64,000 nt of DNA from Myxococcales bacterium (lineage in GTDB: Bacteria > Myxococcota_A > Polyangia > Fen-1088): positions 11,520 to 75,519 of the forward strand of contig JANPFD010000221.1 in assembly GCA_031423255.1 (NCBI GenBank), read 5' to 3'. Position numbers and translations under genes: made by a program. Of this stretch, positions 2,563 through 18,161 are shown piece after piece (positions within the stretch are counted from its first letter, which is position 1; each line of letters starts with the position of its first letter). The notes under the pieces are model-generated. The model made no database searches, was not told where the DNA came from, and saw nothing but the letters and a program-made list of their open reading frames with translations.

Positions 2563-4603
2563 CGTCGCGCACCGAGGGCACCCGGCGCGAGGTGCCCGCC
2601 GGAACCTCGACTGTCTGGACGGCGGCCTCGTGGTGCTGGGCGTTGATCTTGATCGTCCATGATCCGGGTGCAAGGCCTAGCAGCGTGAACGCCGCGCCCC
2701 GGATGTCGACTCTGTCGGGACGCGCGCCCTCGGGGCCGGTCGCCTCCAGGTCGTAGCGCGTGATGAAGGCGGCCGAGCCGCGCTCGCGCACCTCGCCCTG
2801 GATTCCCCCGGGGCGCGGCAGGTCGATGGCGACGCGGTCACCGGCACGGGCGACGCGGGCGCCAGCGGCGAATTCGGCGTGGCGAGCTTCGATCACCACG
2901 GACGCGGTGGGCAGGCCGACCAGACGGAACCTGCCGCCGGGATCGGTGGCAGCCGAGGCGAGTGTGAGCGGCGCCGACGCACTCGACAGGTCGGCGATGG
3001 GACGTGGGGCCCAGGGGGAACCCGGGGCGGCCGTCAGTGCCGCCGGCGGCGTCCAGGCGGCGACCGACGCCCGCGCCACCGGACGCCCCGCGGCGTCGCG
3101 CACCTGGCCTTCGACCACGCCGGTGGCCACGGGTAGCCGCAGCTCCAGAGCCGGCGGCGATCCCTCGGCGCGCACCGATGGGATCGACTGCGGCGCGCGC
3201 TCGGGCGCCAGGCCGATCAGCAGGTACTCACCGCGTGGGACCCTGAGTGAGAAGCGCCCCTCGCGATCGGAGGCAGCGCGAACGGACAGGCTCGACGGCG
3301 CGCGCATCGGCCGCGCCTCCACCCGGGCCCCCGGTAGCGGCCGGCCGCCTTCGTCGAGCACCCGGCCCGTCAACTGCACCCCTGACGGGAGGGCCAGGTC
3401 TCCCAGATCCTGGGCGTCGCCTGGTGCGAGCAGGATCGGCTCGCGGCGAAACGGCAGCGCGTCTGCGTGGGCAAGGTCCAGTCGGATCCGGCCCGGCGGC
3501 ACGTCGTCGAGGCGGAAGCGTCCCCGGGCATCCGTGATCGTGGTGCGCGCCCTGCCCCGCCGTGCGAGCGTCTGACCCGGCAGTCCCGCCGCCTCGGCCG
3601 CCAGCGGCAGTGCGCCCCTCAGCACCGTCAACTCGTCGTTGCCGCCGACGAGGCCGACGATCGACACCGCCACCCCGGCGAGCGGCTTGCCCTGCCCATC
3701 CATCGCCCGGCCCGATAGACGGGCCGAGCGCGCCAGCCGGAGCTGGACGCTGCTCGGGGTCTCGGGCCGCAAGCGCAGCTCGGGCGCATCGAGAAGGATG
3801 TGCTGAGGAGCGCGCGCCAGGAGTTGGTAGCGGCCGGGGGGCACGGGGCCGATGGAGAAGCGGCCGCGATCGTCGGTGGTGCCGAGCTCGGGCAGGTCGT
3901 CGACCGGCAGCGCCGTCAGCTCCAGATTCACGCCGGCCAGTGGGCGCCCGACCTCATCGGCCACCGTCCCCTCGACAAAGGCGCCCGGTTCCAGCGTGAG
4001 TCTCACGGGCGCGACCCACGATGTGGCCTCGTCGATGATGGTGGAGGCGGAGTCCGAGGCAAGTCGGCCGGCCGACGCCCGCACACTGTAGCGGCCGCGT
4101 CCCAGGCCGCGAAACAGGAATGCCCCCCTGGAATCGGTCTCGCCTTCCCGGGGGACGCGCAGGTTGACACCACCGAGCCGCACGCGGGCGGCGATCTTCG
4201 CGCCCAGCACGAGGCCGCCGAGCGTGCGGCTCTCGCCCTCGAGCGCGAGCACCAGCGGCTTGCCGGGGATCGCGACGCGGTCGATCTGCAGGGTGCCGAA
4301 ACCTGGCGCTTCGGCCAGCAGCGTCCAGTCGCCCCGGTGCAAACCGTCGAAGGCGAATCGACCGTCGGCGCCGGCGCGCGCCTGCCTGACGTCCTGCTGG
4401 CCGCGGACGCGCCCCGCCGGCCAGATCAGGACCAGCGCGTCGGGCAGCGGGTGCTCCTTCGCGTCCTGCACGACCCCCTCCAGCGCCTGGTCGGCTACCA
4501 GCCTCGAAGGAGACCGTGCGGAGGCGTCGGACGGCGTCCCGGGTTGCCGGCGGCACGCCATGCCGACCATCGCTACCAGGGCCAGATGACTTGCTAAACG
4601 CAT
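2528..4603 (-). CDS. Lipoprotein with tandem carboxypeptidase-regulatory-like beta-sandwich repeats
   Basis: Lipobox-like VGMAC; repeated GxVxDxxGxPlxGa and TDxxGRFxxxxlxxGxy units. Confidence 0.75.
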   Translation of the reverse strand: MRLASHLALVAMVGMACRRQPGTPSDASARSPSRLVADQALEGVVQDAKEHPLPDALVLIWPAGRVRGQQDVRQARAGADGRFAFDGLHRGDWTLLAEAPGFGTLQIDRVAIPGKPLVLALEGESRTLGGLVLGAKIAARVRLGGVNLRVPREGETDSRGAFLFRGLGRGRYSVRASAGRLASDSASTIIDEATSWVAPVRLTLEPGAFVEGTVADEVGRPLAGVNLELTALPVDDLPELGTTDDRGRFSIGPVPPGRYQLLARAPQHILLDAPELRLRPETPSSVQLRLARSARLSGRAMDGQGKPLAGVAVSIVGLVGGNDELTVLRGALPLAAEAAGLPGQTLARRGRARTTITDARGRFRLDDVPPGRIRLDLAHADALPFRREPILLAPGDAQDLGDLALPSGVQLTGRVLDEGGRPLPGARVEARPMRAPSSLSVRAASDREGRFSLRVPRGEYLLIGLAPERAPQSIPSVRAEGSPPALELRLPVATGVVEGQVRDAAGRPVARASVAAWTPPAALTAAPGSPWAPRPIADLSSASAPLTLASAATDPGGRFRLVGLPTASVVIEARHAEFAAGARVARAGDRVAIDLPRPGGIQGEVRERGSAAFITRYDLEATGPEGARPDRVDIRGAAFTLLGLAPGSWTIKINAQHHEAAVQTVEVPAGTSRRVPSVRDVRIEIGVAAAP

Positions 4604-4640
4604 CGGCCGATGCTAATCGTACGCCCCTTCGGAGAGTGTC

Positions 4641-4832
4641 ATGCCAGCGCAGTGTGCCATCTGTAGCAAGCGACGTCGGTCCGTCAACAACGTCAGCCAT
4701 GCGAACAACAAGACGAAGAGCATTCAGCGGCCGAACCTGCAGCGTGTGCACATCGAAGAGAACGGCACCCGGAAGCATGTCCGGATCTGCACGCGCTGTC
4801 TGCGCTCGGGCCTCGTCACCAAGGTCGCGTAG
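4641..4832 (+). CDS. rpmB: 50S ribosomal protein L28, zinc-binding form
   Basis: CAIC...NNVSHANNKTK...PNLQ...ICTRCLRSG; GGAG SD upstream. Confidence 0.95.
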   Translation: MPAQCAICSKRRRSVNNVSHANNKTKSIQRPNLQRVHIEENGTRKHVRICTRCLRSGLVTKVA

Positions 4833-4836
4833 CTCT

Positions 4837-5229
4837 CTAGACGACCACCGCCACGGCGTCGATCTCGACCTGAGCGCCCTTCGGTAGGCCTGCGACCTGG
4901 ACTGTGGCGCGGGCGGGCGGCGCGGCCTTGAAGTAGCTGCCGTAGACCTCGTTGACGTGGCCGAAGTTCTGCAGGTCGGTGAGGTAGATCGTGGTCTTCA
5001 CAACTGCGTCGAGCGAGGCGCCCGCGGCTTCGAGCACCGCCTTCAGGTTTTGCATCACCCGGTGCGTCTCGGCCTTCACGTCGCCGGCGCCGACCATCTC
5101 GCCGGTGGCCGGATCGAGAGGAATCTGGCCCGAACAGAAGACGAGCTTGCTGGCGACGACGGAGATGGCTTGCGAGTAGGGTCCGATCGCCTTCGGGGCG
5201 CCGGGGCTTGCGACGGGCTGTCGTGACAT
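4837..5229 (-). CDS. ridA: RidA/YjgF family reactive-intermediate deaminase
   Basis: APKAIGPYSQA, SGQIPLDP, PPARATVQVAGLPKGAQVEIDA; start taken at MSRQPV. Confidence 0.92.
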   Translation of the reverse strand: MSRQPVASPGAPKAIGPYSQAISVVASKLVFCSGQIPLDPATGEMVGAGDVKAETHRVMQNLKAVLEAAGASLDAVVKTTIYLTDLQNFGHVNEVYGSYFKAAPPARATVQVAGLPKGAQVEIDAVAVVV

Positions 5230-5251
5230 GCGGGCATGATACCTTGCCCTG

Positions 5252-5587
5252 GTGAAGTCACGCCGCCGCGCGCGCAACGTCGAGCCCCAGACTGCGGCAG
5301 ACTTGATGGGGGCGACGCTGGCACGCCTGGGCGGCGATGGCCGGGCCACCGAGAACCGTGTGTTCACGGCTTACCGGAACGCTGCCGGATCGCTGCTGAA
5401 CGCGCGCACCGAGCCGGAGTCCGTGCGCGGGCAGACGTTGTTCGTGCGCGCATCCAGCTCGGCGGTCGCACACCAGCTGGCGCTGCTGAAGGCGGAGATC
5501 CTCGGACGCATGGGCACGGAGGAGGTCAACGATCTCCGCACGCGCGTCGGGCCATTGCAGGCTAAAGCGCCGCACGGAGACCGCTGA
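5252..5587 (+). CDS. DUF721/DciA family protein
   Basis: Size and pattern (TEPESVRGQTLFVRASSSAVAHQLALLKAEIL) typical of DUF721. Confidence 0.7.
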   Translation: MKSRRRARNVEPQTAADLMGATLARLGGDGRATENRVFTAYRNAAGSLLNARTEPESVRGQTLFVRASSSAVAHQLALLKAEILGRMGTEEVNDLRTRVGPLQAKAPHGDR

Positions 5588-6367
5588 CGAAGCGCTCGAG
5601 GGCGGGCACCGGGTCCTTCCCGGCGACTGTCGCCTCCTGGATCACCTTCACCGCGGCGCTGCCGACCACCACGCCGTCGGCGAAGAGGGCCACCGACCGC
5701 ACCTGCTCGGCGGTGGCGATGCCGAAACCGACAACCACCGGCAAGCGGTTGCCCGTCAACTCGCGAATCTCGGCCACGTGGCGGCGTACGCCCTCGAAGG
5801 CGGCGTCGTCGAGGAAGCGGCCGGTGATCCCCGTCAGCGACACGTAGTAGATGAAGCCGCTGGCCGCCGCGCCGATCGCCTTCACCCGTTTCGGCGTCGA
5901 CGTCGGAGCAAGAAGCGGAACGAAATCGAGGCCTTTCTTCGCCAGAGCTGAAGTGAGCTCGGAGGCCTCATCGGGCGGCCAGTCGACGCACAGGACGGCG
6001 TCGGCGCCCGCGTCGTGGGCGGCGCCGGCAAACGCCTCGGGCCCGCGCACGAAGATCGGGTTCGCGTAGCCGAACAGCACCAGCGGCAGGTTCGGCGCCT
6101 CTGCGCGCACCCGACGGCAGAGCTCCAGCGACGCGCGCATGCCGCCGCCGGCTGCGATTGCCCGCCGCATCGCCCCCTGGATCGCCACGCCGTCGGCCGA
6201 GGGATCGCTCCATGGCACGCCCAGCTCGATGATGTCCGCGCCCGCCTTGTGGGCCGCGAGCACCAGCTTGCGGCCAGTCTCCGCGTCCGGATCGCCCGCG
6301 GTCAGGTAGATGACCAGCGCCTTGCGCTTTTCCTGCTTAGCCTGCGCGAACGCGCTCGCCAGGCGGC

Positions 6368-6371
<4 letters not shown>
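5562..6371 (-). CDS. trpA: Tryptophan synthase alpha chain
   Basis: [49 protein letters not shown]; GTG start overlaps the trpB stop. Confidence 0.95.
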
Positions 6372-7576
<1,205 letters not shown>

Positions 7577-7612
7577 TGGCAGGGCGTCACTATATGCCTT
7601 TGCGACCTCGCC

Positions 7613-7900
7613 ATGTCGACCCTGGACGACAACCTCGACGCGCCGTTCGATCCGACGAAGCGACGGCTCTGTCCCGACGAGACCTGCATCGGATTGCTCG
7701 CGCAGGAGCAGGGGGGTGACGACCGTTGCCGGGTGTGCGGACGGCGGCCCGGTGAAGAGCCCATGGCCGCCGCCGTCGTCGAGGCCGACGAGGGCTCGTC
7801 TTTCGCCTCGGGTCGCAAGCTATGCCCCGACGGATCCTGCATCGGCGTCATCGGACCCGACGGGCGCTGCAAGGAGTGCGGCCGGGCCGAGGTGGCGTAG
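7613..7900 (+). CDS. Small protein with two tandem Cys4 (zinc-ribbon-like) repeats
   Basis: [13 protein letters not shown]...RCRVCG and [23 protein letters not shown]; real 3' part of listed ORF 6494..7900. Confidence 0.75.
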
Positions 7901-8260
7901 GTGCCCTCGGTCGCGATCATCGGCGCATCGAACGACCGCAACAAGTACGGCAACCGCGCGGTGCGGGCGTACCAGCGCCAGGGCTGGACCGTCTACCCCG
8001 TCAATCCGAACGAGCGGACGGTCGAGGGGCTGGCCGCTTTCGCGCGCATCACCGACATCCCGGACACCATCGACCGCGCCTCGCTCTATGTGCCAGCGGC
8101 GATCGGGCAAACCTTGCTCGCTGGCATCCAGTCGAAGGGAGTGGGCGAGCTGTTCGTGAACCCGGGCGCCGAGAGCGACGCGCTCACCGCCGAGGCGCAG
8201 CGACTGGGGCTCGAGGCCATCTACGCCTGCAGCATCGTCGACATCGGGGAGCGACCGTGA
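7901..8260 (+). CDS. CoA-binding protein (YccU-like)
   Basis: VAIIGASNDRNKYG, VYPVNP, NPGAE, C-terminal C. Confidence 0.85.
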   Translation: MPSVAIIGASNDRNKYGNRAVRAYQRQGWTVYPVNPNERTVEGLAAFARITDIPDTIDRASLYVPAAIGQTLLAGIQSKGVGELFVNPGAESDALTAEAQRLGLEAIYACSIVDIGERP

Positions 8261-9204
8261 TCTTCCCTCCCGTCGTCGAGAACATGATCCAGCTCATCGG
8301 CGGCACGCCTCTCGTGCGGTTGCAGAAGCTGCCCGGGCCGCAGAGCGCCGACGTGTTCGTGAAGTGCGAGCAGTTCAACCCGGGCGGCTCGGTGAAGGAC
8401 CGCGTGGCGCTGGCGATGATCGAGCTGGGCGAGCGCGAGGGCAAGCTGCTGCCCGGCAAGTCGACCATCGTCGAGCCGACTTCGGGAAACACCGGCGTCG
8501 GGCTGGCGCTGGTGTCGGCGGCGAAGCGCTACCGGCTGATCCTGACCATGCCGGACAACATGTCGGCCGAGCGACGGATCCTGCTGAAGGCCTACGGCGC
8601 CGAGGTGTACCTGACCCCCGCGGCCGAGGTGATGAACGGGGCCGTGCGCAAGGCGATGGAACTGTGCGCCGAGAACCCGAAGTTCGTGATGCCCCAGCAG
8701 TTCAAGAACCCGGCCAACGCCGAAGCCCACCGCCGCACGACGGGGCCCGAGATCGTCGCCCAGCTCGAGGAGGCCGGAAACCGCGTCCCCGATGCCTTCG
8801 TCGCCGGAGTCGGCACCGGCGGCACCATCACCGGCGTGGGACAGGTGCTGCGACACCGGTGGCCGAAGGTGAAGATCGTCGCGGTCGAACCGGCGCGAAG
8901 CGCGGTGCTGTCCGGTCGCGCGCCGTCCGCGCACAGGATAGACGGAATCGGGGCCGGGTTCGTGCCCGACATTCTCGATCGCAGCGTGATCACCGAGGTG
9001 CGGACCATCGAGGACGAGGATGCCCAGCGGGTGAAGCTCGAACTGGCGCGACGCGAAGGACTGCTGGTCGGCATCTCGGCCGGTGCGGCAGTGAAGATCG
9101 CGCTGGACGTCGCCCGCGAGCTGGGGCCGGGCAAGACGGTCGTCACCGTGCTGCCCGACACCGGCGAGCGCTACTTCAGCTCGGACGAAGCGTTCGAGAG
9201 ATGA
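8257..9204 (+). CDS. cysK: Cysteine synthase A
   Basis: NPGGSVKDR, EPTSGNTG, MPQQFKNPAN, GVGTGGTITG, HRIDGIGAG, LPDTGERY. Confidence 0.92.
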   Translation: MIFPPVVENMIQLIGGTPLVRLQKLPGPQSADVFVKCEQFNPGGSVKDRVALAMIELGEREGKLLPGKSTIVEPTSGNTGVGLALVSAAKRYRLILTMPDNMSAERRILLKAYGAEVYLTPAAEVMNGAVRKAMELCAENPKFVMPQQFKNPANAEAHRRTTGPEIVAQLEEAGNRVPDAFVAGVGTGGTITGVGQVLRHRWPKVKIVAVEPARSAVLSGRAPSAHRIDGIGAGFVPDILDRSVITEVRTIEDEDAQRVKLELARREGLLVGISAGAAVKIALDVARELGPGKTVVTVLPDTGERYFSSDEAFER

Positions 9205-9842
9205 GCGTGCTCGTGATCGGCGCGGGAGGCCTGGGCTGCGGGGCGGCCATGGGGCTGGCGGCGGCGGGCGTGAAGATGACCGTCATCGACGACGACGTGG
9301 TGGAGGAGTCGAATCTCCACCGCCAGGTGCTCCATACCGACGCGTGGATCGGCCGGCCGAAGGTCGAATCGCTTGCCGCCGCCGTCCGTGGTGTCACGCC
9401 CATCCGCGGTCGCTTCGATGCCGGGAACGCCGCCCGGCTCGTTGCTGCGTGCGACGTCATCGTCGATGGCTCGGACAATCTGCCCACGAAATTTCTGGCG
9501 AACGATGCCGCGGTGCTCGCCCGCAAGCCGCTGGTGCATGCCGCTGCGATCGAGGGCTGGGGCCAGCTCTTGACGGTGCCCGCCGGTGGCCGCCCTTGTT
9601 ACCGTTGTCTTTTCGAGGATCTCCCGCCGGCCGGCAGTGACGCCGGCGCGTCGTGCGCCGAGATCGGCGTCCTCGGCCCCGTGCCAGGGGTACTGGGAGC
9701 GCTCCAGGCGGTCGAAGCGCTCCGGATCCTTCGCGGCGAAACTCCAGTCTTTGCGGGGCGTCTCATCCGGTATGATTCGCGCTCCATGACGTTCCGGACC
9801 GTGCGTTTCCAGCCGAACCCGACCTGCGGGGCGTGTCGATGA
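9201..9842 (+). CDS. MoeB/ThiF/HesA E1-like adenylyltransferase lacking the N-terminal RYxRQ segment and a rhodanese domain
   Basis: GAGGLG, DDDVVEESNLHRQ, DGSDN, CYRC, SCAEIGVLG, CGAC; begins directly at strand beta1. Confidence 0.88.
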   Translation: MSVLVIGAGGLGCGAAMGLAAAGVKMTVIDDDVVEESNLHRQVLHTDAWIGRPKVESLAAAVRGVTPIRGRFDAGNAARLVAACDVIVDGSDNLPTKFLANDAAVLARKPLVHAAAIEGWGQLLTVPAGGRPCYRCLFEDLPPAGSDAGASCAEIGVLGPVPGVLGALQAVEALRILRGETPVFAGRLIRYDSRSMTFRTVRFQPNPTCGACR

Positions 9843-11089
9843 GTCTCGTGAAGGGCCTGCACTGCCGTGAGTGCGACAAGACCTACCCCAAGCAGCCGAT
9901 CCACGTGTGCGAGTACTGCTTCGGCCCGCTGGAGATCACCTACGACTACGCCGCCATTGCCAAGATATTGACCAAGGCGGTGATCGACTCGCGGCCGCCG
10001 TCGATGTGGCGGTACGCGGAGCTGCTGCCGCTGGATGCGGCGCCAACGGTCGGCCTGCAGACCGGCATGACGCCCCTGGTGAAGGCCAACCGCCTCGCCG
10101 AACGCCTCGGCGTCAAGGAGCTGTGGGTCAAGAACGATTCGGTCAGTCACCCCACCCTCTCGTTCAAGGATCGCGTGGTGGCGGTCGCCGTGTCCAAGGC
10201 GCGCGAGTTCGGCATTCCGATCGTCGCCTGCGCCTCGACGGGCAACCTGGCCAACGCCACGGCCGCCCAGGCGGCGTCGGTCGGCATGAAATGCGTGGTG
10301 CTCATCCCGCATGACCTCGAGCCGGCGAAGATCCTGGCCACGACGATCTACGGCGCACGCGTCGTCGGTGTGAAGGGGACGTACGACGACGTCAACCGAC
10401 TGTGCTCCGAGATCGCCGGCAAGTACGGCTGGGGCTTCGTCAACGTGAACCTGCGGCCGTTCTACGCCGAGGGCTCGAAGTCGTTCGGCTACGAGGTGGC
10501 CGAGCAGCTGGGCTGGAGGCTTCCGGCGCACATCGTGGTGCCGATGGCGGGCGGATCGCTCATCACCAAGATCGGCAAGGCGTTCAGCGAGATGCAGAAG
10601 CTGAACTTCGTCGAGTCCGCCAGGACCAAGATCCACGGCGCCCAACCCGAGGGCTGCGCGCCGATCGCGTCGATGGTGGTGGAAGATCGCGATGTCGTGA
10701 AGCCGGTGAAGCAGCCCCAGACCATCGCCAAGTCGCTGGCCATCGGCAACCCGGCCGACGCCTGGTTCGCGCGGGCGACGATGCTCAACTCGGGCGGCTT
10801 CGCGGCGATGCCCGGCGACGACGAGATCATCGATGGGATGCGGCTTCTGGCCGAGACCGAGGGGATCTTCACCGAGACCGCCGGTGGGGTGACCATCGGC
10901 GCGGCCAGGCGCCTCATCGCCCAGGGCAGGATCGGCCGCGACGACGGACCGGTGGTCCTGTGCATCACCGGCCAGGGCCTCAAGACGCAGGATCCGCTGG
11001 TAGAGAAGTTGCCAAAGCCTGAACTGATCGGCCCGCGCCTCGGCGATTTCGATCACCTGCTCGGTGGACCGCTCAAGCAGTTCGCATAA
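9839..11089 (+). CDS. thrC: Threonine synthase-like PLP enzyme
   Basis: N-terminal CREC...CEYC, HPTLSFKDR, ASTGNLA, NVNLRPFYAEGSK, ITGQGLK; actual activity uncertain (see findings). Confidence 0.8.
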   Translation: MSLVKGLHCRECDKTYPKQPIHVCEYCFGPLEITYDYAAIAKILTKAVIDSRPPSMWRYAELLPLDAAPTVGLQTGMTPLVKANRLAERLGVKELWVKNDSVSHPTLSFKDRVVAVAVSKAREFGIPIVACASTGNLANATAAQAASVGMKCVVLIPHDLEPAKILATTIYGARVVGVKGTYDDVNRLCSEIAGKYGWGFVNVNLRPFYAEGSKSFGYEVAEQLGWRLPAHIVVPMAGGSLITKIGKAFSEMQKLNFVESARTKIHGAQPEGCAPIASMVVEDRDVVKPVKQPQTIAKSLAIGNPADAWFARATMLNSGGFAAMPGDDEIIDGMRLLAETEGIFTETAGGVTIGAARRLIAQGRIGRDDGPVVLCITGQGLKTQDPLVEKLPKPELIGPRLGDFDHLLGGPLKQFA

Positions 11090-11107
11090 CCACAAGGAGA
11101 CCAAGAC

Positions 11108-11380
11108 ATGGCCACGGTTCGCATCCCCACGCCGCTGCGGAAGCTGACGAACGGCAAGGAAGAGGTCAGCGCCACGGGCGCCACGATCGGCGACATCATC
11201 GCCAGCCTGGAGACACAGTTTCCCGGCATCAAGGATCGCATCTGCGACGAGGGCGGCAAGGTCCGCCGCTTCGTCAACATCTTCGCCAACGACGAGGACA
11301 TCCGGTTCCTGAAGAACCTGGAGACGCCGGTCAAGGACTCGGACGAGATCTCGATCGTTCCTGCCATCGCGGGGGGGTGA
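11108..11380 (+). CDS. MoaD/ThiS/CysO-family ubiquitin-like sulfur carrier
   Basis: VRIPTPLR, RRFVNIFAN, C-terminal PAIAGG; AAGGAG SD. Confidence 0.92.
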   Translation: MATVRIPTPLRKLTNGKEEVSATGATIGDIIASLETQFPGIKDRICDEGGKVRRFVNIFANDEDIRFLKNLETPVKDSDEISIVPAIAGG

Positions 11381-11682
11381 TGCCGCTGGACCTGGCCGCG
11401 GTCCGTCGATACGCGCGGCAGATCGCCTTGCCGTTCGTGGGCGCGTCGGGGCAGGAGCGCATCCTCGCGGCCGAGGTCGCCGTGGTGGGGCAGACGGCCG
11501 AGCTGTACCTCAAGGCCGCGGGCGTGGGCTGCGTGCGGAGAATTGCCGCGGAGAACACCGGCCGCCCGGAGTTGCAGGTGCTGGCCGGCGCGCTGGCGGC
11601 GACGGAGCAGCTCTGGGCCATCCTCGAAGACCGCCCGCCACGGTCTTTCAGCGTCGTCGACGGCGAGGCGGTCATCGAATGA
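11380..11682 (+). CDS. Degenerate miniature ThiF/MoeB-like protein (inactive E1 subunit candidate)
   Basis: RRYARQIALPFVGASGQERI, LYLKAAGVG and AGALAATE retained; P-loop, SNLxRQ and Cys motifs absent; overlaps both neighbours. Confidence 0.75.
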   Translation: MPLDLAAVRRYARQIALPFVGASGQERILAAEVAVVGQTAELYLKAAGVGCVRRIAAENTGRPELQVLAGALAATEQLWAILEDRPPRSFSVVDGEAVIE

Positions 11683-12647
11683 GCGCGATCGACGAGGAAG
11701 CCGTCGCGCGCGCCAGGCGCCGCGTTGCCGAGACCGTCAGTCAGCTCATCGGCAACACCCCTCTCGTGCGGCTGCGCCTGTTCGATCGCGAGTTGCCCAA
11801 CATCGAGATCTGGGCCAAGTGTGAGTTCATGAACCCGGGCGGCTCGGTGAAGGACAGAGCCGCGCACCAGATGATCCAGGATGCGCTCGCAAGCGGCGAG
11901 CTGACGCCCGACAAGGAGATCATCGACTCGTCCAGCGGCAACACCGGGATCGCCTACTCGCTCATCGGCAGGGCCCTCGGCTACAAGGTGACGCTGGTGC
12001 TACCGAAGAACGTCTCCTGGGCGCGGCGGAAGATCAGCGAGGCGTTCGGGACGAAGCTGGTGTTCTCGAGCCCGCTCGAGGGATCCGACGGCGCCATCCG
12101 ACTGTGCCGCGAGCTGGTCGACGCGAACCCGCAGAAGTACTACTACCCGAACCAGTACGGCAACGAGTCGAACCCGCGCGGCCACTACGAGACCACGGGC
12201 AAGGAGATCTGGGAGCAGACCGGGGGCCGGGTCACCCACTTCGTCGCCGGCATCGGCACCAGCGGCACGGTGATGGGCACGGGGCGCCGGCTCAAGGCGT
12301 ACCGGCGCGAGATCGAGGTCTACGCGCTGGAGCCGGACGACGCGCTCCACGGGCTCGAGGGCCTCAAGCACATGGCCAGCTCGATCGTCCCCGAGATCTA
12401 CCACCCCGAGGAACTGGACGGCGTCATCCCGATGTCCACCGACGAGGCGTGGGACGTCAGCGAGCGCCTGGCGCGCGAGGAGGGCATTCTGGTCGGGCAC
12501 TCGTCGGGCGGCGCGCTGGCCGGCGCGGTGCGGATCGCCCGCAAGCTGGTGGCCGCCGGCAAGCCGGGCGTGATCGTGACGGTGTTCCCCGACAGAGCCG
12601 ACCGTTACTTCGAGCCGCCGATGGTCACCCAGGCGGGGGCGGCATGA
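11679..12647 (+). CDS. cysM: Cysteine synthase B / CysM-like sulfhydrylase
   Basis: NPGGSVKDR, SSSGNTG, NQYGNESN, GIGTSGT, HGLEGLKH; lies between the sulfur carrier and the JAB peptidase. Confidence 0.85.
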   Translation: MSAIDEEAVARARRRVAETVSQLIGNTPLVRLRLFDRELPNIEIWAKCEFMNPGGSVKDRAAHQMIQDALASGELTPDKEIIDSSSGNTGIAYSLIGRALGYKVTLVLPKNVSWARRKISEAFGTKLVFSSPLEGSDGAIRLCRELVDANPQKYYYPNQYGNESNPRGHYETTGKEIWEQTGGRVTHFVAGIGTSGTVMGTGRRLKAYRREIEVYALEPDDALHGLEGLKHMASSIVPEIYHPEELDGVIPMSTDEAWDVSERLAREEGILVGHSSGGALAGAVRIARKLVAAGKPGVIVTVFPDRADRYFEPPMVTQAGAA

Positions 12648-13102
12648 CGATCCTGTCACCGGAGGCGCTGCACGAGATCTACGCCCAGGCACGCCGCGAG
12701 TACCCGAAGGAATGCTGCGGGATGGTGTTCGGTCCGCGTGGCCACGATGCCGCCGACAAGGTGCGGCCCTGCGTGAACACGCAGGATCAGTTGCACGCCG
12801 ACGATCCTATCACCCACACGCGCGACGCGCGCACCGCCTACAACCTGGGTGCCGGCGATCTGTTCGCGCTGCAGAAGAGCCTGCGCGGGGACAACCCGGC
12901 GAAGATCGTCTACCACTCGCACGTGGAGGTCGGCGCTTACTTCAGCGACACCGATCAGGCGGCGGCACAGATGGACGGGGAACCGGCCTACCCCGTCGAG
13001 TATGTCGTGGTCGACATCAGGGCGGACGGGCCCCACGGGGCGGCGCAGTTCGTCTGGGACGACACCCAGAAAAAATACGTCGAGGTCCGTCGCTACCCGT
13101 GA
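12644..13102 (+). CDS. JAB/MPN+ (M67, Mec-like) metallopeptidase
   Basis: YPKECCG and YHSH...YFSDTD JAMM motif. Confidence 0.9.
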   Translation: MTILSPEALHEIYAQARREYPKECCGMVFGPRGHDAADKVRPCVNTQDQLHADDPITHTRDARTAYNLGAGDLFALQKSLRGDNPAKIVYHSHVEVGAYFSDTDQAAAQMDGEPAYPVEYVVVDIRADGPHGAAQFVWDDTQKKYVEVRRYP

Positions 13103-14373
13103 AGGACGAGGAATCGAGGACGCCGGCGCCCGTGCGCCGCGTGACGATACCGGCTGCGGTGGCTCCGCTGCTGCTCCAGTTCCCCGAGCTCGACTCGCGC
13201 ATCTGGATGCTGGCGGTGGCGCGATTCATCGTCACCGCCGGCTTCTCGGTGGTCATGCCGTTCCTCGCCATGCACCTGGCGGTCGAGCGCCACGTGCCGG
13301 TGCTTCAGATCGGGGTGCTGTGGACGATCGTCGGCGTGTCCGGCTCGATCATGCAGGGGGTGGCGGGCGAGGTGGCGGATCGCATTGGCCGGCGGCCCGT
13401 GATGATAGCGGCGATGCTGCTCCGCTCGCTGAACCTGGCGGGCCTGGGGTACGCCATCGGAACCGACGCGCCCTTCGCGGTGGTCGGCGCCCTGTGTGTC
13501 ATCAACGGAGCGATGCGGGCGTTCTACGACCCGGTGGCGTCCGCGGTGGTCGCTTCGCTGGCGTCACCCGACGAGCGCGTGGCCGCCTTCTCGCTCCACC
13601 GCGTGGGCTCCAGCCTGGGCTGGGCGGCGGGGCCGCTGGTGGCCACCCTCGCCTCCAGCGTGCCGTACAGCGTGCTGTTCTACGCCTGCGCGCCGCTGAC
13701 GCTGCTGGCGGTGATACCGGCGGCGATCATTCCCGAGACCCGCGGCGAGCGGCCGCCGAAGAAGGTGCGCGTGGCAGACATCGTCGCCTTCCGCCGGGAT
13801 CGCATCTTCGTCCGGTTCCTCTGGGCGACATTCGCGTTTTACCTGATGCAAACGCAGATGTACCACATCATGGCGATCTACGCGGCCAAGTACCTGGACC
13901 TCACGCGCGCCCAGGTCGGCACGTTGTTCACCCTGAACGGGATCATGGTGGTGCTGTTCCAGTTGCCGGCGGTGCGCTTCATTCGCCAGGTCGGCACGCG
14001 GGGTGCGCTGGTGGCCGGATCACTCGGCTATCTGGTCGCCTATGCAGCTTGCGGCCAGGTCACCGGCTATCTCGCGCTCCTGCCGTGCGTGGCGCTCATC
14101 ACCTTGTGCGAGATCTTCAGCGCTCCGGCGCAGCAGGCGGCGGTCACCGCCCTCGCCCCGCCCCATCGCGTGGCGGCCTACTCGGGCGTTTACGGACTGA
14201 TCCAGGGCGCCGCACAGACCGTCGGCCCGATCCTGGGGACGTTCCTGATCGCCACCTTCCGCCCATCAGTAGCCTGGATGATGCTCGCATCCTTGGGTCT
14301 GGTGGCAGCCTGGGGCTACCGGCCGCGGCCAGGCGGCACCGTTGGCCAGGCGACGCTCACACCCTGGCGCTAG
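13099..14373 (+). CDS. MFS transporter
   Basis: About 12 hydrophobic segments, motif A GEVADRIGRR; start approximate. Confidence 0.88.
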   Translation: MKDEESRTPAPVRRVTIPAAVAPLLLQFPELDSRIWMLAVARFIVTAGFSVVMPFLAMHLAVERHVPVLQIGVLWTIVGVSGSIMQGVAGEVADRIGRRPVMIAAMLLRSLNLAGLGYAIGTDAPFAVVGALCVINGAMRAFYDPVASAVVASLASPDERVAAFSLHRVGSSLGWAAGPLVATLASSVPYSVLFYACAPLTLLAVIPAAIIPETRGERPPKKVRVADIVAFRRDRIFVRFLWATFAFYLMQTQMYHIMAIYAAKYLDLTRAQVGTLFTLNGIMVVLFQLPAVRFIRQVGTRGALVAGSLGYLVAYAACGQVTGYLALLPCVALITLCEIFSAPAQQAAVTALAPPHRVAAYSGVYGLIQGAAQTVGPILGTFLIATFRPSVAWMMLASLGLVAAWGYRPRPGGTVGQATLTPWR

Positions 14374-15155
14374 TTACACGCCTGGAGGGCGCCCGAGGTG
14401 AAGCCCTTGCGGAACGCCGCCACGCGCTGGGCAGAGCTGCCGTGGGTGAAGGATTCCGGGACCACGCGCCCGCGCGTCTTGCGCTGGAGGGTGTCGTCGC
14501 CGATGGCAGAAGCCGCGCCCAGCGCCTCATCGATGTCGCCCGGCTCCACCACCTTCTTCGCGCGGTCGGCGTGGTTGGCCCAGACGCCCGCCAGGCAGTC
14601 GGCCTGCAACTCGAACTCGACCGAGGCCTGGTTCGTCCGCGGATGCGACGCTCCGAGCAACGTCTGCACGTGATGCCCGACCTCGTGAGCCACGACGTAG
14701 GCCTGGGCGAAGTCGCCGGGCGCGCCGAATCGACGGTCGAGCTCGTGAAAGAAGCCGACGTCGAGATACACTTTTCGATCCATCGGACAGTAGAACGGGC
14801 CCATCGCCGAACCGGCCATCCCACACGCGGACTCGACCCCTTCGCTGAACATGACCAGGCGCGGGGGCTCGTAGCGCTTGCCCGCGGCCCTGAAGAGACT
14901 GGTCCAGGCATCCTCCGTGTCGGCCAGAACCACCGAGACGAAGTCCGCCTGGCGATCTTCGGCTGGGCTCGTCTCGCGATGCTCCTGGGTGACCTCACCG
15001 CCACCGCCCACCATGTCGATCAGCGCCTTGGGCGCACCCACCAGCGCCAGAATCAGCGCCACGACTGCGGCGCCACCGCCCGCGGCTCCGCGTCGAAATG
15101 CGACGCCTCGACGATCATCGACGTTGACACTGCGACGCCCGGTTTCCCAACGCAT
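14370..15155 (-). CDS. Neutral zinc metallopeptidase, YpfJ-like
   Basis: GPFYCP, DFAQAYVVAHEVGHHVQ, ELQADCLAG, FTHGSSAQR. Confidence 0.9.
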   Translation of the reverse strand: MRWETGRRSVNVDDRRGVAFRRGAAGGGAAVVALILALVGAPKALIDMVGGGGEVTQEHRETSPAEDRQADFVSVVLADTEDAWTSLFRAAGKRYEPPRLVMFSEGVESACGMAGSAMGPFYCPMDRKVYLDVGFFHELDRRFGAPGDFAQAYVVAHEVGHHVQTLLGASHPRTNQASVEFELQADCLAGVWANHADRAKKVVEPGDIDEALGAASAIGDDTLQRKTRGRVVPESFTHGSSAQRVAAFRKGFTSGALQACN

Positions 15156-15178
15156 ACCGAGAATGTAAGCACGACACG

Positions 15179-16153
15179 TCAGGGGAGGAGGACCGTCGAA
15201 CCGACGGTCTTGCGCGCCTCCAGGGCCGTGTGGGCGGCCACAGCGTCGCGAAGCGGGAAGCTCTGCGCCGTGTGGATCCGTATCTTGCCAGACACCACCA
15301 CGGCGAATAGCTCCGCGGACATGGCGCGCAGCGCATCCCGGGTGCCGGCGTAGCCGAACAGCGTCGGCCTGGTCAGGAACAAAGAGCCCTTGGCGCTGAG
15401 CTGGATCACGTCGAACGGCGGCACCGAACCGGAGGCCTGCCCGAACGACACCATCAGGCCCCGCGGCTGCAGGCAGTCGAGCGAGCGATCGAATGTGTCC
15501 TTGCCGATGCCGTCGTACACCACCCGCACGCCGCGGCCGCCGGTCAGGTCCTTGACCCGCGCCACCACGTCATCACGGCCGTGAAGCAACACGTGATCGC
15601 AGCCGTTGGCCCGGGCGAGCTTTGCTTTGTCCTCGCTGCCGACCGTTCCGATCACCGTGGCACCCAGGTGCTTGGCCCACTGGCAGGCGATGAGTCCGAC
15701 TCCACCGGCCGCAGCGTGGAACAGGATGGGATCGCCGGGCTTCACCTCGTACGTCTGCCGCAGCAGGTACTGGGCGGTCAGCCCCTTCAACATCATCGAC
15801 GCCGCTGTCCGGTCGTCGACGCCGTCCGGGACTTTCACCAGCTTGTCGACGGGGACCAGCCGCTCCTCGGAATAGGCGCCCACCGGAGCGGTGGCGTACG
15901 CAACGCGGTCGCCGACCTTCAACTCGGTCACGCCCTCGCCGACAGCCAGCACCACTGCCGCTCCCTCGGTGCCGGGTGTGAACGGCAACGGCTGCTTGTA
16001 GAGGCCACTGCGGTGGTAGGTGTCGATGAAATTGACGCCCACGGCGGTGTGACGAACGCGCGCTTCACCCGGACCGGGCGCGCCGATCGGCAACTCCTCC
16101 CACGTGAGGACGTCAGGACCACCCGTTCGATGAACTCGGATCGCTTTGGGCAT
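15179..16153 (-). CDS. qor: NADPH:quinone oxidoreductase (zeta-crystallin family)
   Basis: GVNFIDTY, HAAAGGVG, VSFGQASG, KGSLFLTRPTL. Confidence 0.9.
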   Translation of the reverse strand: MPKAIRVHRTGGPDVLTWEELPIGAPGPGEARVRHTAVGVNFIDTYHRSGLYKQPLPFTPGTEGAAVVLAVGEGVTELKVGDRVAYATAPVGAYSEERLVPVDKLVKVPDGVDDRTAASMMLKGLTAQYLLRQTYEVKPGDPILFHAAAGGVGLIACQWAKHLGATVIGTVGSEDKAKLARANGCDHVLLHGRDDVVARVKDLTGGRGVRVVYDGIGKDTFDRSLDCLQPRGLMVSFGQASGSVPPFDVIQLSAKGSLFLTRPTLFGYAGTRDALRAMSAELFAVVVSGKIRIHTAQSFPLRDAVAAHTALEARKTVGSTVLLP

Positions 16154-16179
16154 CAGTGGGGCATAGTATAAGCACTCCC

Positions 16180-17202
16180 GTGGACCCTCTGTTCCTGCGC
16201 GCATGCCGAGGTGAAGCGACACCGCGGCCGCCCCTGTGGCTGATGCGACAGGCGGGGCGCTATCTGCCCGAGTACCGCGAGGTGCGCCAGCGCGTCTCGT
16301 TCCTGGAACTGTGCAAGAACCCGGCGCTGGCCACCGAGGTGACCCTGCAGCCGATCCGGCGCTTCGGGTTCGACGCCGCCATCCTTTTTTCGGATCTGCT
16401 GATCCCCCTGGAGGCGATGGGGTTGCCGGTCGCGTTCACCGAGCAGGGGCCGACCATCGACGCGCCCGTGCGCACGCCCGCCGATCTCGAGCGCCTCGAG
16501 GTGTTCGATCCGGCGCAGAAGACCCCGTTCGTGCTCGAAACCATCAAGCAGCTGCGCCTTGCGCTGGGTGAGACGCCACTCGTCGGCTTTGCGGGCGCGC
16601 CTTTCACCGTCGCCACCTACGCCATCGAGGGCAAGACCGGCAAGCGGTTCTCTGAAACGAAGGGCTTCTTTTACCGGCATCCGGACGCGGCGCGGAAGCT
16701 GCTGGCGGTGATCGGGGACGCCACGGCGCGGTACCTGAAGGCGCAGGTGGAGGCCGGCGCGCAGGTGATCCAGATCTTCGATTCGTGGCTGGGAGCGGCC
16801 TCGCCCGAAGACTGGGAAGAATTCATCGCCGAGCCGACGACGGCGCTGGTGCAGGCGGTCAGGAGCGCGGGCGTGCCCGTCATCTACTTCCCGCACGGCG
16901 CGACGACGCTGCTCGACCGGATCGCGCGCGTGAAGGCGGACGTGTACGGCATCGACTGGCGCCTGCCGCTCGACGAGGCGCGCGCGCGGCTGGCGGCCGG
17001 GGGCATGCCGGAGGCAGTGGTGCAAGGGAACCTCGATCCGGCGGTGCTGCTCGGCCCGGCCGAGCGCATCCGGCAGCAGGTGGCGGACGTCCTGCGGCGG
17101 GGCGGCGGGCAGGGACACATCTTCAATCTGGGCCACGGCATCTATCCCGAGACTCCGGTCGAGAACGTCGAGGTCCTGGTCGAGGCCATCCAGGAAGGAT
17201 GA
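16180..17202 (+). CDS. hemE: Uroporphyrinogen decarboxylase
   Basis: WLMRQAGRYLPEY, DAAILFSD, QIFDSW, QGNLDP, IFNLGHG. Confidence 0.95.
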   Translation: MDPLFLRACRGEATPRPPLWLMRQAGRYLPEYREVRQRVSFLELCKNPALATEVTLQPIRRFGFDAAILFSDLLIPLEAMGLPVAFTEQGPTIDAPVRTPADLERLEVFDPAQKTPFVLETIKQLRLALGETPLVGFAGAPFTVATYAIEGKTGKRFSETKGFFYRHPDAARKLLAVIGDATARYLKAQVEAGAQVIQIFDSWLGAASPEDWEEFIAEPTTALVQAVRSAGVPVIYFPHGATTLLDRIARVKADVYGIDWRLPLDEARARLAAGGMPEAVVQGNLDPAVLLGPAERIRQQVADVLRRGGGQGHIFNLGHGIYPETPVENVEVLVEAIQEG

Positions 17203-18161
17203 CGGTCGGGGTCGTCGCCCTGAACCTGGGCGGACCGGGGTCGCTGGACGACGTCGAGCCGTTCTTGCGGAACCTCTTTTCCGATCCTCTGGTGGTCGAC
17301 CTCGGCTGGGCGCGGCCGCTGCAACCGCTGTTCGCGCGCATGGTGGCGAGCCGTCGCGCGCCCAGCTCGCGGGAGGTGTACCGCCAGATCGGAGGGCGCT
17401 CGCCAATCGCCGAGGAGTCGGCGGCTCAGGCGGCGGCCGTGGCCCGGGCCCTGGAGGAGCGCGGTCTTTCCGCGCGGCCGTACACCGCCATGGCCGCCTG
17501 GCGACCGAATGCAGAGCAGGCGGTAGCGGCGATGCGCGCCGATGGCATCCAGCGCGCGATCGCCTTGCCGCTTTACCCGCACGAGTCGCGCGCCACCACC
17601 GGGTCCTCCTTCCACCAGCTCGCGCGAGCGGCCGACGGCACCCTGGAGGTGGCCTGGATCCGGCGCTATCCCGACGCTCCCGGCTACGTGGAGGCGGTCG
17701 TCGATCGCCTGCGCGACGCGATGGCGACCGTCCCCGAGGGCACGACGGTCCTGTTCTCGGCACACGGCCTGCCCGAATCGTACATCCGTGGTGGCGATCC
17801 CTATCTCGACGACATCCGGACCACCGTTGGCGCCGTGGCACGACGGCTGGGCCTGGGCGCACGCGCGCAGCTGGCTTTCCAGAGCCGTGTTGGCCGGCAG
17901 AAGTGGCTTGGCCCCTACACCGAGGAGGCGCTGGACCGTCTGGCCGACGAGGGCGCGACCGCCGTCGTGGTCTGTCCCATCGCCTTCACCGGCGAGCACG
18001 TCGAGACCCTCCAGGAGATCGACATTCTTTACCGCGAGCGCGCCCAGAAGCGTGGCATCCGGAACTTTGCCCGCGCAAGGACTGTCGGCTTGCACCCCGC
18101 GTTCATCGGCGCCCTGGCGGATCTGGCTCTGGCGGCCGCGCGCGAAAGAGGCTGGACGTGA
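17199..18161 (+). CDS. hemH: Ferrochelatase
   Basis: LNLGGP, LPLYP, LFSAHGLP, FQSRVG..KWL.P, EHVETLQEID. Confidence 0.93.
   Translation: MTVGVVALNLGGPGSLDDVEPFLRNLFSDPLVVDLGWARPLQPLFARMVASRRAPSSREVYRQIGGRSPIAEESAAQAAAVARALEERGLSARPYTAMAAWRPNAEQAVAAMRADGIQRAIALPLYPHESRATTGSSFHQLARAADGTLEVAWIRRYPDAPGYVEAVVDRLRDAMATVPEGTTVLFSAHGLPESYIRGGDPYLDDIRTTVGAVARRLGLGARAQLAFQSRVGRQKWLGPYTEEALDRLADEGATAVVVCPIAFTGEHVETLQEIDILYRERAQKRGIRNFARARTVGLHPAFIGALADLALAAARERGWT

Follow-up and report, generated by a model that had tools for sequence, protein, structure and literature searches.

Introduction

Every ubiquitin-like pathway is entered through an E1 enzyme. In eukaryotic E1s the inactive subunit supplies an N-terminal arginine. 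ThiF and MoeB of E. coli (1zud/1zfn and 1jw9) are one-polypeptide, symmetric dimers with two active sites. The second arginine of an N-terminal RYxRQ segment (ThiF R11, MoeB R14) reaches the ATP site of the partner, and a ThiS/MoaD-type carrier with a -GG end serves as substrate. The route from this symmetric dimer to the asymmetric eukaryotic E1 pair is usually argued from the end states alone. Here we analyzed 64,000 nucleotides of DNA from a Myxococcales bacterium (assembly GCA_031423255.1, contig JANPFD010000221.1, positions 11,520 to 75,519 of the forward strand), the whole of which is called the window below. In one operon it encodes a catalytic E1 devoid of the RYxRQ segment and a small protein, the mini pseudo-E1 ('mini'), which carries this segment and no catalytic motif. 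We consider it rather probable that the two constitute a heterodimeric E1 with the mini as the inactive subunit.

The available text of PMC13139853 describes Arg11 of ThiF and Arg14 of MoeB as fingers from the neighboring subunit. In the SUMO and NEDD8 E1s, SAE1/SAE2 and NAE1/UBA3, inactive and active adenylation subunits reside on two proteins, as proposed here; SAE1 and NAE1 hold the inactive and SAE2 and NAE2 the active domain, according to the accessible portion of a review. That the eukaryotic inactive subunit gives the N-terminal arginine is also found in the accessible part of the BilD preprint ('like these eukaryotic E1s'). BilD itself, from the Bil antiviral operons, has an inactive and an active adenylation domain, the inactive one giving Arg9; all other known bacterial E1-like proteins form homodimers, according to the same part of the preprint. 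In BilD both domains are fused in a single polypeptide, which also has a CYS domain and acts together with an E2 in defense, whereas here two separate genes stand in a metabolic operon. Yeast Tcd1-Tcd2, a heterodimeric ThiF-like ct6A dehydratase, has the Arg finger on one subunit and the catalytic residues on the other; unlike the pair reported here it is eukaryotic, acts on tRNA and has two full-size subunits, and its finger is catalytically non-essential as far as the available text of PMC13139853 goes. A two-gene E1 in a bacterial sulfur-carrier pathway is described neither in the literature searched, an incomplete set with few subscription journals, nor in the accessible part of the older survey PMC1779556.

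Results and discussion

Two genes with complementary parts of an E1

The genes in question are:

9201..9842, + strand: catalytic E1 of the ThiF/MoeB type, 213 residues; Pfam ThiF PF00899, 187.3 bits
11108..11380, + strand: ThiS/MoaD-type sulfur carrier, 90 residues, ending in GG (..AIAGG); Pfam ThiS, E 4.1e-17
11377..11682, + strand: mini pseudo-E1, 101 residues; RRYARQ Arg segment, beta1, YLKAAGVG helix and dimer-interface helix

The E1, with the N-terminus MSVLVIGAGGLG..., contains GAGGLG, SNLHRQ and DGSDN, which we take to be the GxGxxG P-loop, the SNLxRQ arginine and the DxxDN aspartate motifs, as well as two CxxC pairs (CYRC, CGAC) and SCAE. The motif columns were invariant across 16 aligned sequences. 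With E 3.2e-55 against the Pfam ThiF profile, far above the gathering cut-off of 28.1 bits, the protein is a member of the family; yet residues 2-210 align to profile positions 22-237 of 238, and the first ~21 positions are missing. A first-pass annotation, made from the letters of the window, had described an E1 complete in its motifs but without an N-terminal RYxRQ, and this was correct. Its statement that no such segment is encoded in frame upstream also held. When every stop-to-stop frame in window positions 4001-18000 was searched with a hidden Markov model (HMM) for the Arg segment, the only match on the operon strand was the mini reading frame. The ThiF domain alone covers the E1 end to end and a rhodanese domain is absent from it. 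The E1 orthologues in relatives are truncated to the same degree.

The other ThiF-domain genes of the genome sit on other contigs. There is an open frame of ~396 residues with a full ThiF match, and a full-length E1 (C116, ThiF profile 1-238) has an N-terminus which resembles the mini. The C-terminal end of the window E1 (9780-9842) is also short; it stops one residue past the second CxxC (..CGACR). All 13 aligned orthologues from the window's family, f1, have an extra tail of ~10-30 residues, mostly ..IR.L....YPA..C. In the window the start of the next, ThrC-like gene overlaps the shortened end.

The mini starts with GTG at 11377 (101 residues) or ATG at 11380 (100 residues) and its sequence includes ..RRYARQIALPFVGASGQERILAAEVAVVGQTAELYLKAAGVG..VLAGALAATEQL... 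As the first-pass annotation had stated for the 100-residue form, it has the Arg segment and the interface helix, and no catalytic motif: the P-loop columns are deleted and SNLxRQ, DxxDN and CxxC are absent. The Pfam ThiF profile aligns only residues 12-38 to its positions 1-27 and scores 17.5 bits, below the cut-off. The GC content at third codon positions (GC3) is 0.91, within the 0.80-0.94 of most neighbors. A profile of 31 minis puts RYxRQ on the RYSRQ of ThiF (1zfn/1zud, E 5.9e-14), so that R14 of the mini equals R11 of ThiF, and aligns the last helix to ThiF 196-217. Thus the E1 (ThiF 22-237) and the mini (ThiF 1-27) cover complementary parts of the profile. Within ThiF/MoeB the mini counts as a homologue and not as an enzyme of that family.

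In the PDB the mini profile matched, among others, human SAE1, which is the inactive subunit of the SUMO E1, over its N-terminal ~110 residues (E about 5e-6); SAE2/UBA2 chains were absent from its 11 PDB hits. The nearest ESM Atlas clusters are 'hypothetical proteins' of 107-122 residues with 59-277 members and Myxococcota as the commonest phylum; only one of them carries a ThiF Pfam match, on 10% of its members. The mini family is essentially unannotated, and in annotation the truncated E1s would pass for ordinary MoeB/ThiF.

Truncated E1 and mini occur together

The carrier gene was located in 201 genomes of the same class, 105 of which had a match at E <= 1e-15. All carrier matches of at least 50% identity were taken (83 loci; 13 weaker rows were left out), and 16 loci were added from the best mini matches. 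This gave 99 loci, the window not counted. Loci were classified by tblastn and the Arg-segment HMM; one locus missed by the HMM (L109) was assigned by eye. Calling of Arg segments by regular expression was dropped in favor of the HMM because divergent minis escaped it and because in one case (L027) it reported a P-loop wrongly.

An N-truncated E1 together with a P-loop-less Arg-segment protein after the carrier was present in 62 of the 99 loci, from 12 coded families, and a mini next to a full-length E1 in none; related loci are not independent, and these tallies are counts and not a statistical test. The remaining loci had an N-truncated E1 with no space for a mini (19, all from family f11), a full-length E1 without mini (L037, family f3), a full-length E1 directly after the carrier (L107), a mini without upstream E1 (L098), or neither upstream E1 nor mini (9); in 6 the contig end cuts the locus. 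Thus, separate inactive and active adenylation-domain proteins co-occur throughout much of this set, a point that the first-pass annotation had proposed to survey. The pairing of E1 and mini is conserved, and the two proteins are complementary.

A modelled complex places the Arg segment on the E1

E1, mini and ATP were modelled together, each protein with its own alignment, and three controls were run. The best of the controls scored 0.00 and the complex 0.92, a mark also attained by 58 out of 80 solved complexes and by 2 of 110 mismatched pairs. Contacts agreed to at least 98% between runs and the predicted local distance difference test (pLDDT) value of the partner was at least 86. On the mini side the interface comprises residues 10-15 (RRYARQ), 43-49 and 63-80, and on the E1 side 14-22, 36-43 (ESNLHRQV) and 154-171 (the GVLGPVPGVLGALQAVEAL helix). 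Mini residues 10-15 touch E1 36-43, i.e. RRYARQ lies on ESNLHRQV, and the two interface helices are packed together. The modelled interface is that of the ThiF/MoeB homodimers. The first-pass annotation had suggested a multimer model to see whether the arginine gets to the ATP site. The segment does come to lie on the expected motif; that the arginine actually reaches the ATP site stays a prediction, from a model that resembles the known homodimers.

With the E1 replaced, the control had a score of 0.00. This bears on the idea that the mini pairs not with the operon E1 but elsewhere, e.g. in mixed dimers with a housekeeping MoeZ-type E1, or by docking to the carrier or CysM. The mini-like N-terminus of C116 would fit, as would the gene order: the mini lies between the carrier gene and CysM and does not adjoin the E1. 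The carrier, called adjacent in the first-pass annotation, does adjoin the mini but is 1.3 kb downstream of the E1. However, presence of the mini tracks the truncation of the operon E1 and no feature of MoeZ. Further, the pseudo-E1 of the Binatia type described below is located after CysM, i.e. the position relative to the carrier varies while the pairing is kept. A different partner therefore seems quite improbable to us.

The mini is constrained

In a 15-sequence alignment of f1 forms R11, R14, L18, G22, G25, Q26, V34, L45, G49, A75 and E77 are invariant. In 31 minis from many families with a mean column identity of 28%, R14, G22, G25, Q26, A48, G49 and A75 are invariant. Thus, across different lengths the Arg segment, the surroundings of YLxxAG and the interface helix survive. 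Ratios of nonsynonymous to synonymous substitution rates (dN/dS) were determined according to Nei-Gojobori in 13 orthologous pairs (12 for the E1). They ranged from 0.205 to 0.495 for the mini/pseudo-E1, 0.101 to 0.413 for the E1, 0.032 to 0.288 for the carrier and 0.041 to 0.355 for CysM; with dS at about 1 or above, several pairs come close to saturation, and the least diverged pair had a dN/dS of 0.205 at a dS of 0.30. The mini family is under purifying selection, yet less constrained than its neighbors.

These data speak to the view of the mini as a decaying remainder of an ancestral E1, which stays open only through translational coupling to CysM. It is far shorter than the pseudo-E1s of sister genera, it overlaps both neighbors, and a same-length orthologue was not found among 5.8 billion proteins. 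Yet family dN/dS was 0.20-0.50 in 13 of 13 pairs, the invariant residues are exactly in the two retained elements, similar forms of 90-160 residues exist in many coded families, and in-frame GC3 is 0.91. A pure coupling spacer would not conserve RxxRQ..G..GQ. Simple decay, against which the first-pass annotation had already argued, is in our view hardly credible given the selection, the invariant arginine and the co-occurrence in 62 of 99 loci.

Weighing the heterodimer

Several findings weigh against a heterodimeric E1. First, in the 19 f11 loci (L052, L054, L055, L058, L060, L063, L064, L066, L067, L075, L076, L083, L084, L086, L088, L089, L092, L094, L104) only 23-166 nucleotides separate ThiS and CysM, so that 19 of the 81 loci with a truncated E1 have no mini. 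In the five f11 genomes searched with the mini profile (5/5), strong matches (E about 1e-16) were only the N-termini of MoeZ-type E1s of ~400 residues; in f11 genome G079 one further weak match (E 0.0027) was in a 314-residue open frame. Thus, a truncated E1 can persist without a dedicated partner, and the 'obligate' pair of the first-pass annotation is doubtful. Second, for MoeB as for ThiF the Arg finger is stated to be non-essential in the available text of PMC13139853 (2026), where the R59A mutation of Tcd1 barely changed activity. The N-terminal segment may matter as much for the architecture of the dimer as for catalysis. Third, since solved ThiF/MoeB homodimers exist, a pass of the complex model shows likeness and not that the pair binds; the high score may reflect this likeness and not the affinity of the pair. 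Fourth, the mini evolved faster than its neighbors in 13 of 13 pairs. Finally, the 101-residue mini of the window is without a close relative of the same length among the 5.8 billion proteins; the search yielded only the mini itself, a 140-residue protein (49% identity) and a 93-residue fragment. Therefore, constraint on this particular mini rests on the family-invariant residues that it kept and on its GC3.

The f11 loci and the reportedly dispensable Arg fingers of MoeB/ThiF would be accommodated if the truncated E1 were a self-sufficient homodimer without Arg fingers. The mini would then be an accessory bound to it or to another component, i.e. a stabilizer, an assembly factor or a regulator capping one side of the dimer, and its arginine would be structural. 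Against this, the arginine is invariant in the 31 minis in spite of their low identity, a mini beside a full-length E1 is found in 0 of 99 loci, and the model lays the Arg segment on the SNLHRQ motif of the E1. The f11 E1s keep all catalytic motifs. In a tree their clade is nested in that of the class on a branch of 0.65. The nested position on a long branch makes the mini loss look secondary and accompanied by fast change, and hints at compensation after the loss. We regard a self-sufficient E1 as unlikely.

The heterodimer with an inactive mini accounts for motif complementarity, conservation, purifying selection and the evolutionary series described below, all of which are observed. The part of the first-pass annotation that stood is the complementarity of the two proteins and their conserved pairing (62/99 versus 0). 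That E1 and mini bind physically, that the mini donates its arginine and that full activity requires both are our inferences.

Origin of the mini

In most genera of family f1 the gene after the carrier encodes 185-250 residues, with RYxRQ kept and without GxGxxG or SNLxRQ. In these long forms GFDDD, GPCPH and a CxxC at the C-terminus are among the remnants. One of them was modelled and had the full ThiF/MoeB fold (pLDDT 89.4, predicted template modelling score 0.86), with template modelling (TM) scores of 0.72-0.74 to 1zud, 1zkm and 1jw9, to which it is 22-24% identical. The mini of other coded families has 90-160 residues as in the window, with the N-terminal Arg segment and the helix retained. 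The mini thus is a shrunken paralogue which arose by duplication and degeneration. Gene fission, the 'split' of the first-pass annotation, is ruled out as origin by the full-size P-loop-less pseudo-E1s at the same place in relatives. Since the window E1 clusters with those of sister genera whose forms are long, the shortening of the window mini was probably separate from that in the other families.

A profile of the f1 form was run against 1.84 billion representative proteins. At the threshold of E <= 1e-3 there were 11,924 matches; about 2,500 of them were at E <= 1e-10 and 49 at E <= 1e-30. Among the best 150 matches a P-loop and/or SNLxRQ was found by regular expressions in about 13; the others, fragments included, were without. 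A second group of pseudo-E1s emerged, 210-260 residues long and starting ..QIERYSRQIILP.., with no P-loop and both CxxC pairs kept. In most cases their match to the ThiF Pfam profile is broken into two segments, about 1-50 and 77-237; of the five scanned, one aligned as a single segment, 1-238. The best genomic matches are mostly Candidatus Binatia metagenome-assembled genomes (MAGs). The first 40 of 80 such loci were analyzed. The second pseudo-E1 followed CysM in 19 of the 40 by pattern, and in L166 by tblastn, with the same upstream order. In all 17 loci with an upstream catalytic E1 (L166 included; 16 from Candidatus Binatia or delta-proteobacteria, one from Margulisiibacteriota) this E1 lacked RYxRQ and the P-loop-less pseudo-E1 had kept it. 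The remaining 20 of the 40 loci had a single full-length E1, mostly straight after the carrier (CysK-ThrC-carrier-E1); they come from Omnitrophota, Margulisiibacteriota, Elusimicrobia and others. An Omnitrophota MAG locus, L149, has the order CysK - full E1 - ThrC - carrier - full E1. Its E1s (6995-7807 and 9306-10091) both possess RYxRQ and P-loop and occupy the places that in the window belong to the truncated E1 and to the mini. L149 may show what the locus looked like before complementary loss.

In a quick tree the pseudo-E1s of both groups formed one clade (Shimodaira-Hasegawa-like approximate likelihood ratio test, 100); within it the f1 forms were nested, on a branch of 2.16. The truncated E1s of the class formed one clade (97), as did those of Binatia (100), and all of these, together with the full-length E1 of L037, were inside the full-length E1s of other phyla (94). 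The tree would fit a single duplication followed by complementary loss, its details being uncertain because of the long branches. That the pairing arose separately in Binatia and in the class of the window is not supported, as the pseudo-E1s are one clade; long-branch effects are possible. We put forward tentatively, as something that may or may not hold, that among known inactive adenylation subunits the mini is the smallest (~100 residues with a trans Arg-finger helix and a dimerization helix) and that these loci record the whole path to E1 asymmetry outside eukaryotes. The path would run from a single full E1 via two full E1s, a truncated E1 with a full-size pseudo-E1 and a truncated E1 with a mini to a truncated E1 alone.

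Three loci have an unusual junction at this place. In L027 (7660-7730), L028 (5515-5585) and L035 (7555-7625), all on the - strand, the carrier ends ..AIAGGR-stop and the pseudo-E1 is next in the same frame. ATG, GTG or TTG is absent before its RxxRQ; there is only a CTG two codons past the stop. This suggests a CTG start or stop-codon read-through yielding a carrier-pseudo-E1 fusion. In L045 (G130, family f20) the gene after the carrier has an open frame of ~311 residues from the Arg segment on, with long low-complexity GVG/GIG/GDG repeats, an odd expansion where the family otherwise shrinks.

Proposed mechanism and comparison with known E1s

The activating enzyme of the operon would be made from two gene products. 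The 213-residue E1 would supply the whole adenylation site but lacks the N-terminal RYxRQ helix, which is usually lent to the ATP site of the partner. The 101-residue mini would be the remnant of a duplicated E1 of which only this N-terminal segment and the dimer-interface helix are left. Both would form a 1:1 heterodimer via the canonical ThiF/MoeB dimer interface, in which Arg14 of the mini (equivalent to Arg11 of ThiF and Arg14 of MoeB) and its helix are set against the SNLHRQ/ATP-phosphate region of the E1. The resulting single active site would adenylate the -GG carrier. Fold and motifs of the catalytic subunit, the interface helix, the N-terminal segment and the type of carrier are the same as in ThiF and MoeB; the two gene products imply one site per pair in place of two.

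Probably, E1 and mini work as an uneven pair like the activating enzymes of eukaryotic ubiquitin-type pathways. The parallel to eukaryotic E1 asymmetry drawn in the first-pass annotation extends to the co-occurrence of inactive and active proteins. It ends at the domain composition: an insertion of a catalytic-Cys domain and a ubiquitin-fold domain are absent here, and none of the eight cluster genes scanned matched an E2-like family. The inactive partner has about 100 residues versus >300 in eukaryotic E1s, and the reaction served is sulfur transfer, not protein conjugation. The case would resemble the eukaryotic heterodimers in how it works but does not belong to that family.

A bacterial metabolic E1 appears here to divide labor likewise between separate genes, with many genomes involved and intermediates still extant. 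It constitutes a tractable system for the real contribution of the Arg-finger segment, the minimum size of an inactive partner and a possible escape from dependence, as suggested by f11.

The operon

The eight genes form a tightly packed cluster on the + strand (window 7901-13102). Besides those listed above it comprises:

7901..8260, + strand: CoA-binding-domain protein, first gene of the cluster in family f1; Pfam CoA_binding_2, E 2.5e-23
8284..9204, + strand: CysK-like pyridoxal phosphate (PLP) enzyme; Pfam PALP, E 2e-76 on 8278-9204
9839..11089, + strand: threonine-synthase homologue (ThrC-like) with a Cys-rich N-terminal segment; Pfam PALP, E 6.8e-67
11679..12647, + strand: CysM-like PLP enzyme; Pfam PALP, E 1.4e-66
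12644..13102, + strand: JAMM/Mov34 (Mec-like) metalloprotease; Pfam Prok-JAB, E 1.6e-16

Five gene junctions are 4-base overlaps of the ATGA or GTGA type, which counts in favor of the paired E1. The ATG of the E1 overlaps the stop of the CysK-like gene (ATGA), and the E1/ThrC-like junction is an ATGA overlap as well. The start of the mini overlaps the stop of ThiS (GTGATG) and its stop the start of CysM (ATGA); the CysM stop is overlapped by the ATG of the JAMM gene at 12644 (ATGA). Two starts are uncertain: the CysK-like gene begins at ATG 8284 or a GTG further upstream, and the ThrC-like gene at ATG 9839, which makes the overlap, or GTG 9833. In many f1 loci the cluster is headed, at its upstream end, by a tblastn match to the CoA-binding gene. 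The carrier also matches NCBIfam SAMP1 (63.5 bits) and moaD_arch (52.5 bits).

The -GG carrier, the CysM-type PLP enzyme, the JAMM protease and the ThrC homologue are all in one cluster, and the order is conserved in relatives. The same set is known from Mycobacterium and Streptomyces as CysO/CysM/Mec/MoeZ and MetO/MetM; the accessible part of a 2026 GapMind preprint assigns it to the protein-thiocarboxylate routes to cysteine and homocysteine, respectively. MoeZ, as far as the available sources go, is a full-length ThiF domain fused to rhodanese, whereas the operon E1 has neither the N-terminal segment nor rhodanese and is accompanied by the mini. Judged by family membership, the cluster appears to be a protein-thiocarboxylate operon for cysteine synthesis which probably also serves homocysteine synthesis. 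The ThrC-like protein, which scored 299 bits against the NCBIfam threonine synthase model PRK08197 (cut-off 303), is likely a MetM-type homocysteine synthase using the carrier thiocarboxylate. Its gene is absent in many relatives (L033, L115, L117 and L119 of genus g12, and most non-f1 loci), where the order is CysK-E1-carrier-mini-CysM-JAMM. Since the ThrC-like gene is often missing while the E1/mini pair stays, the homocysteine branch seems optional.

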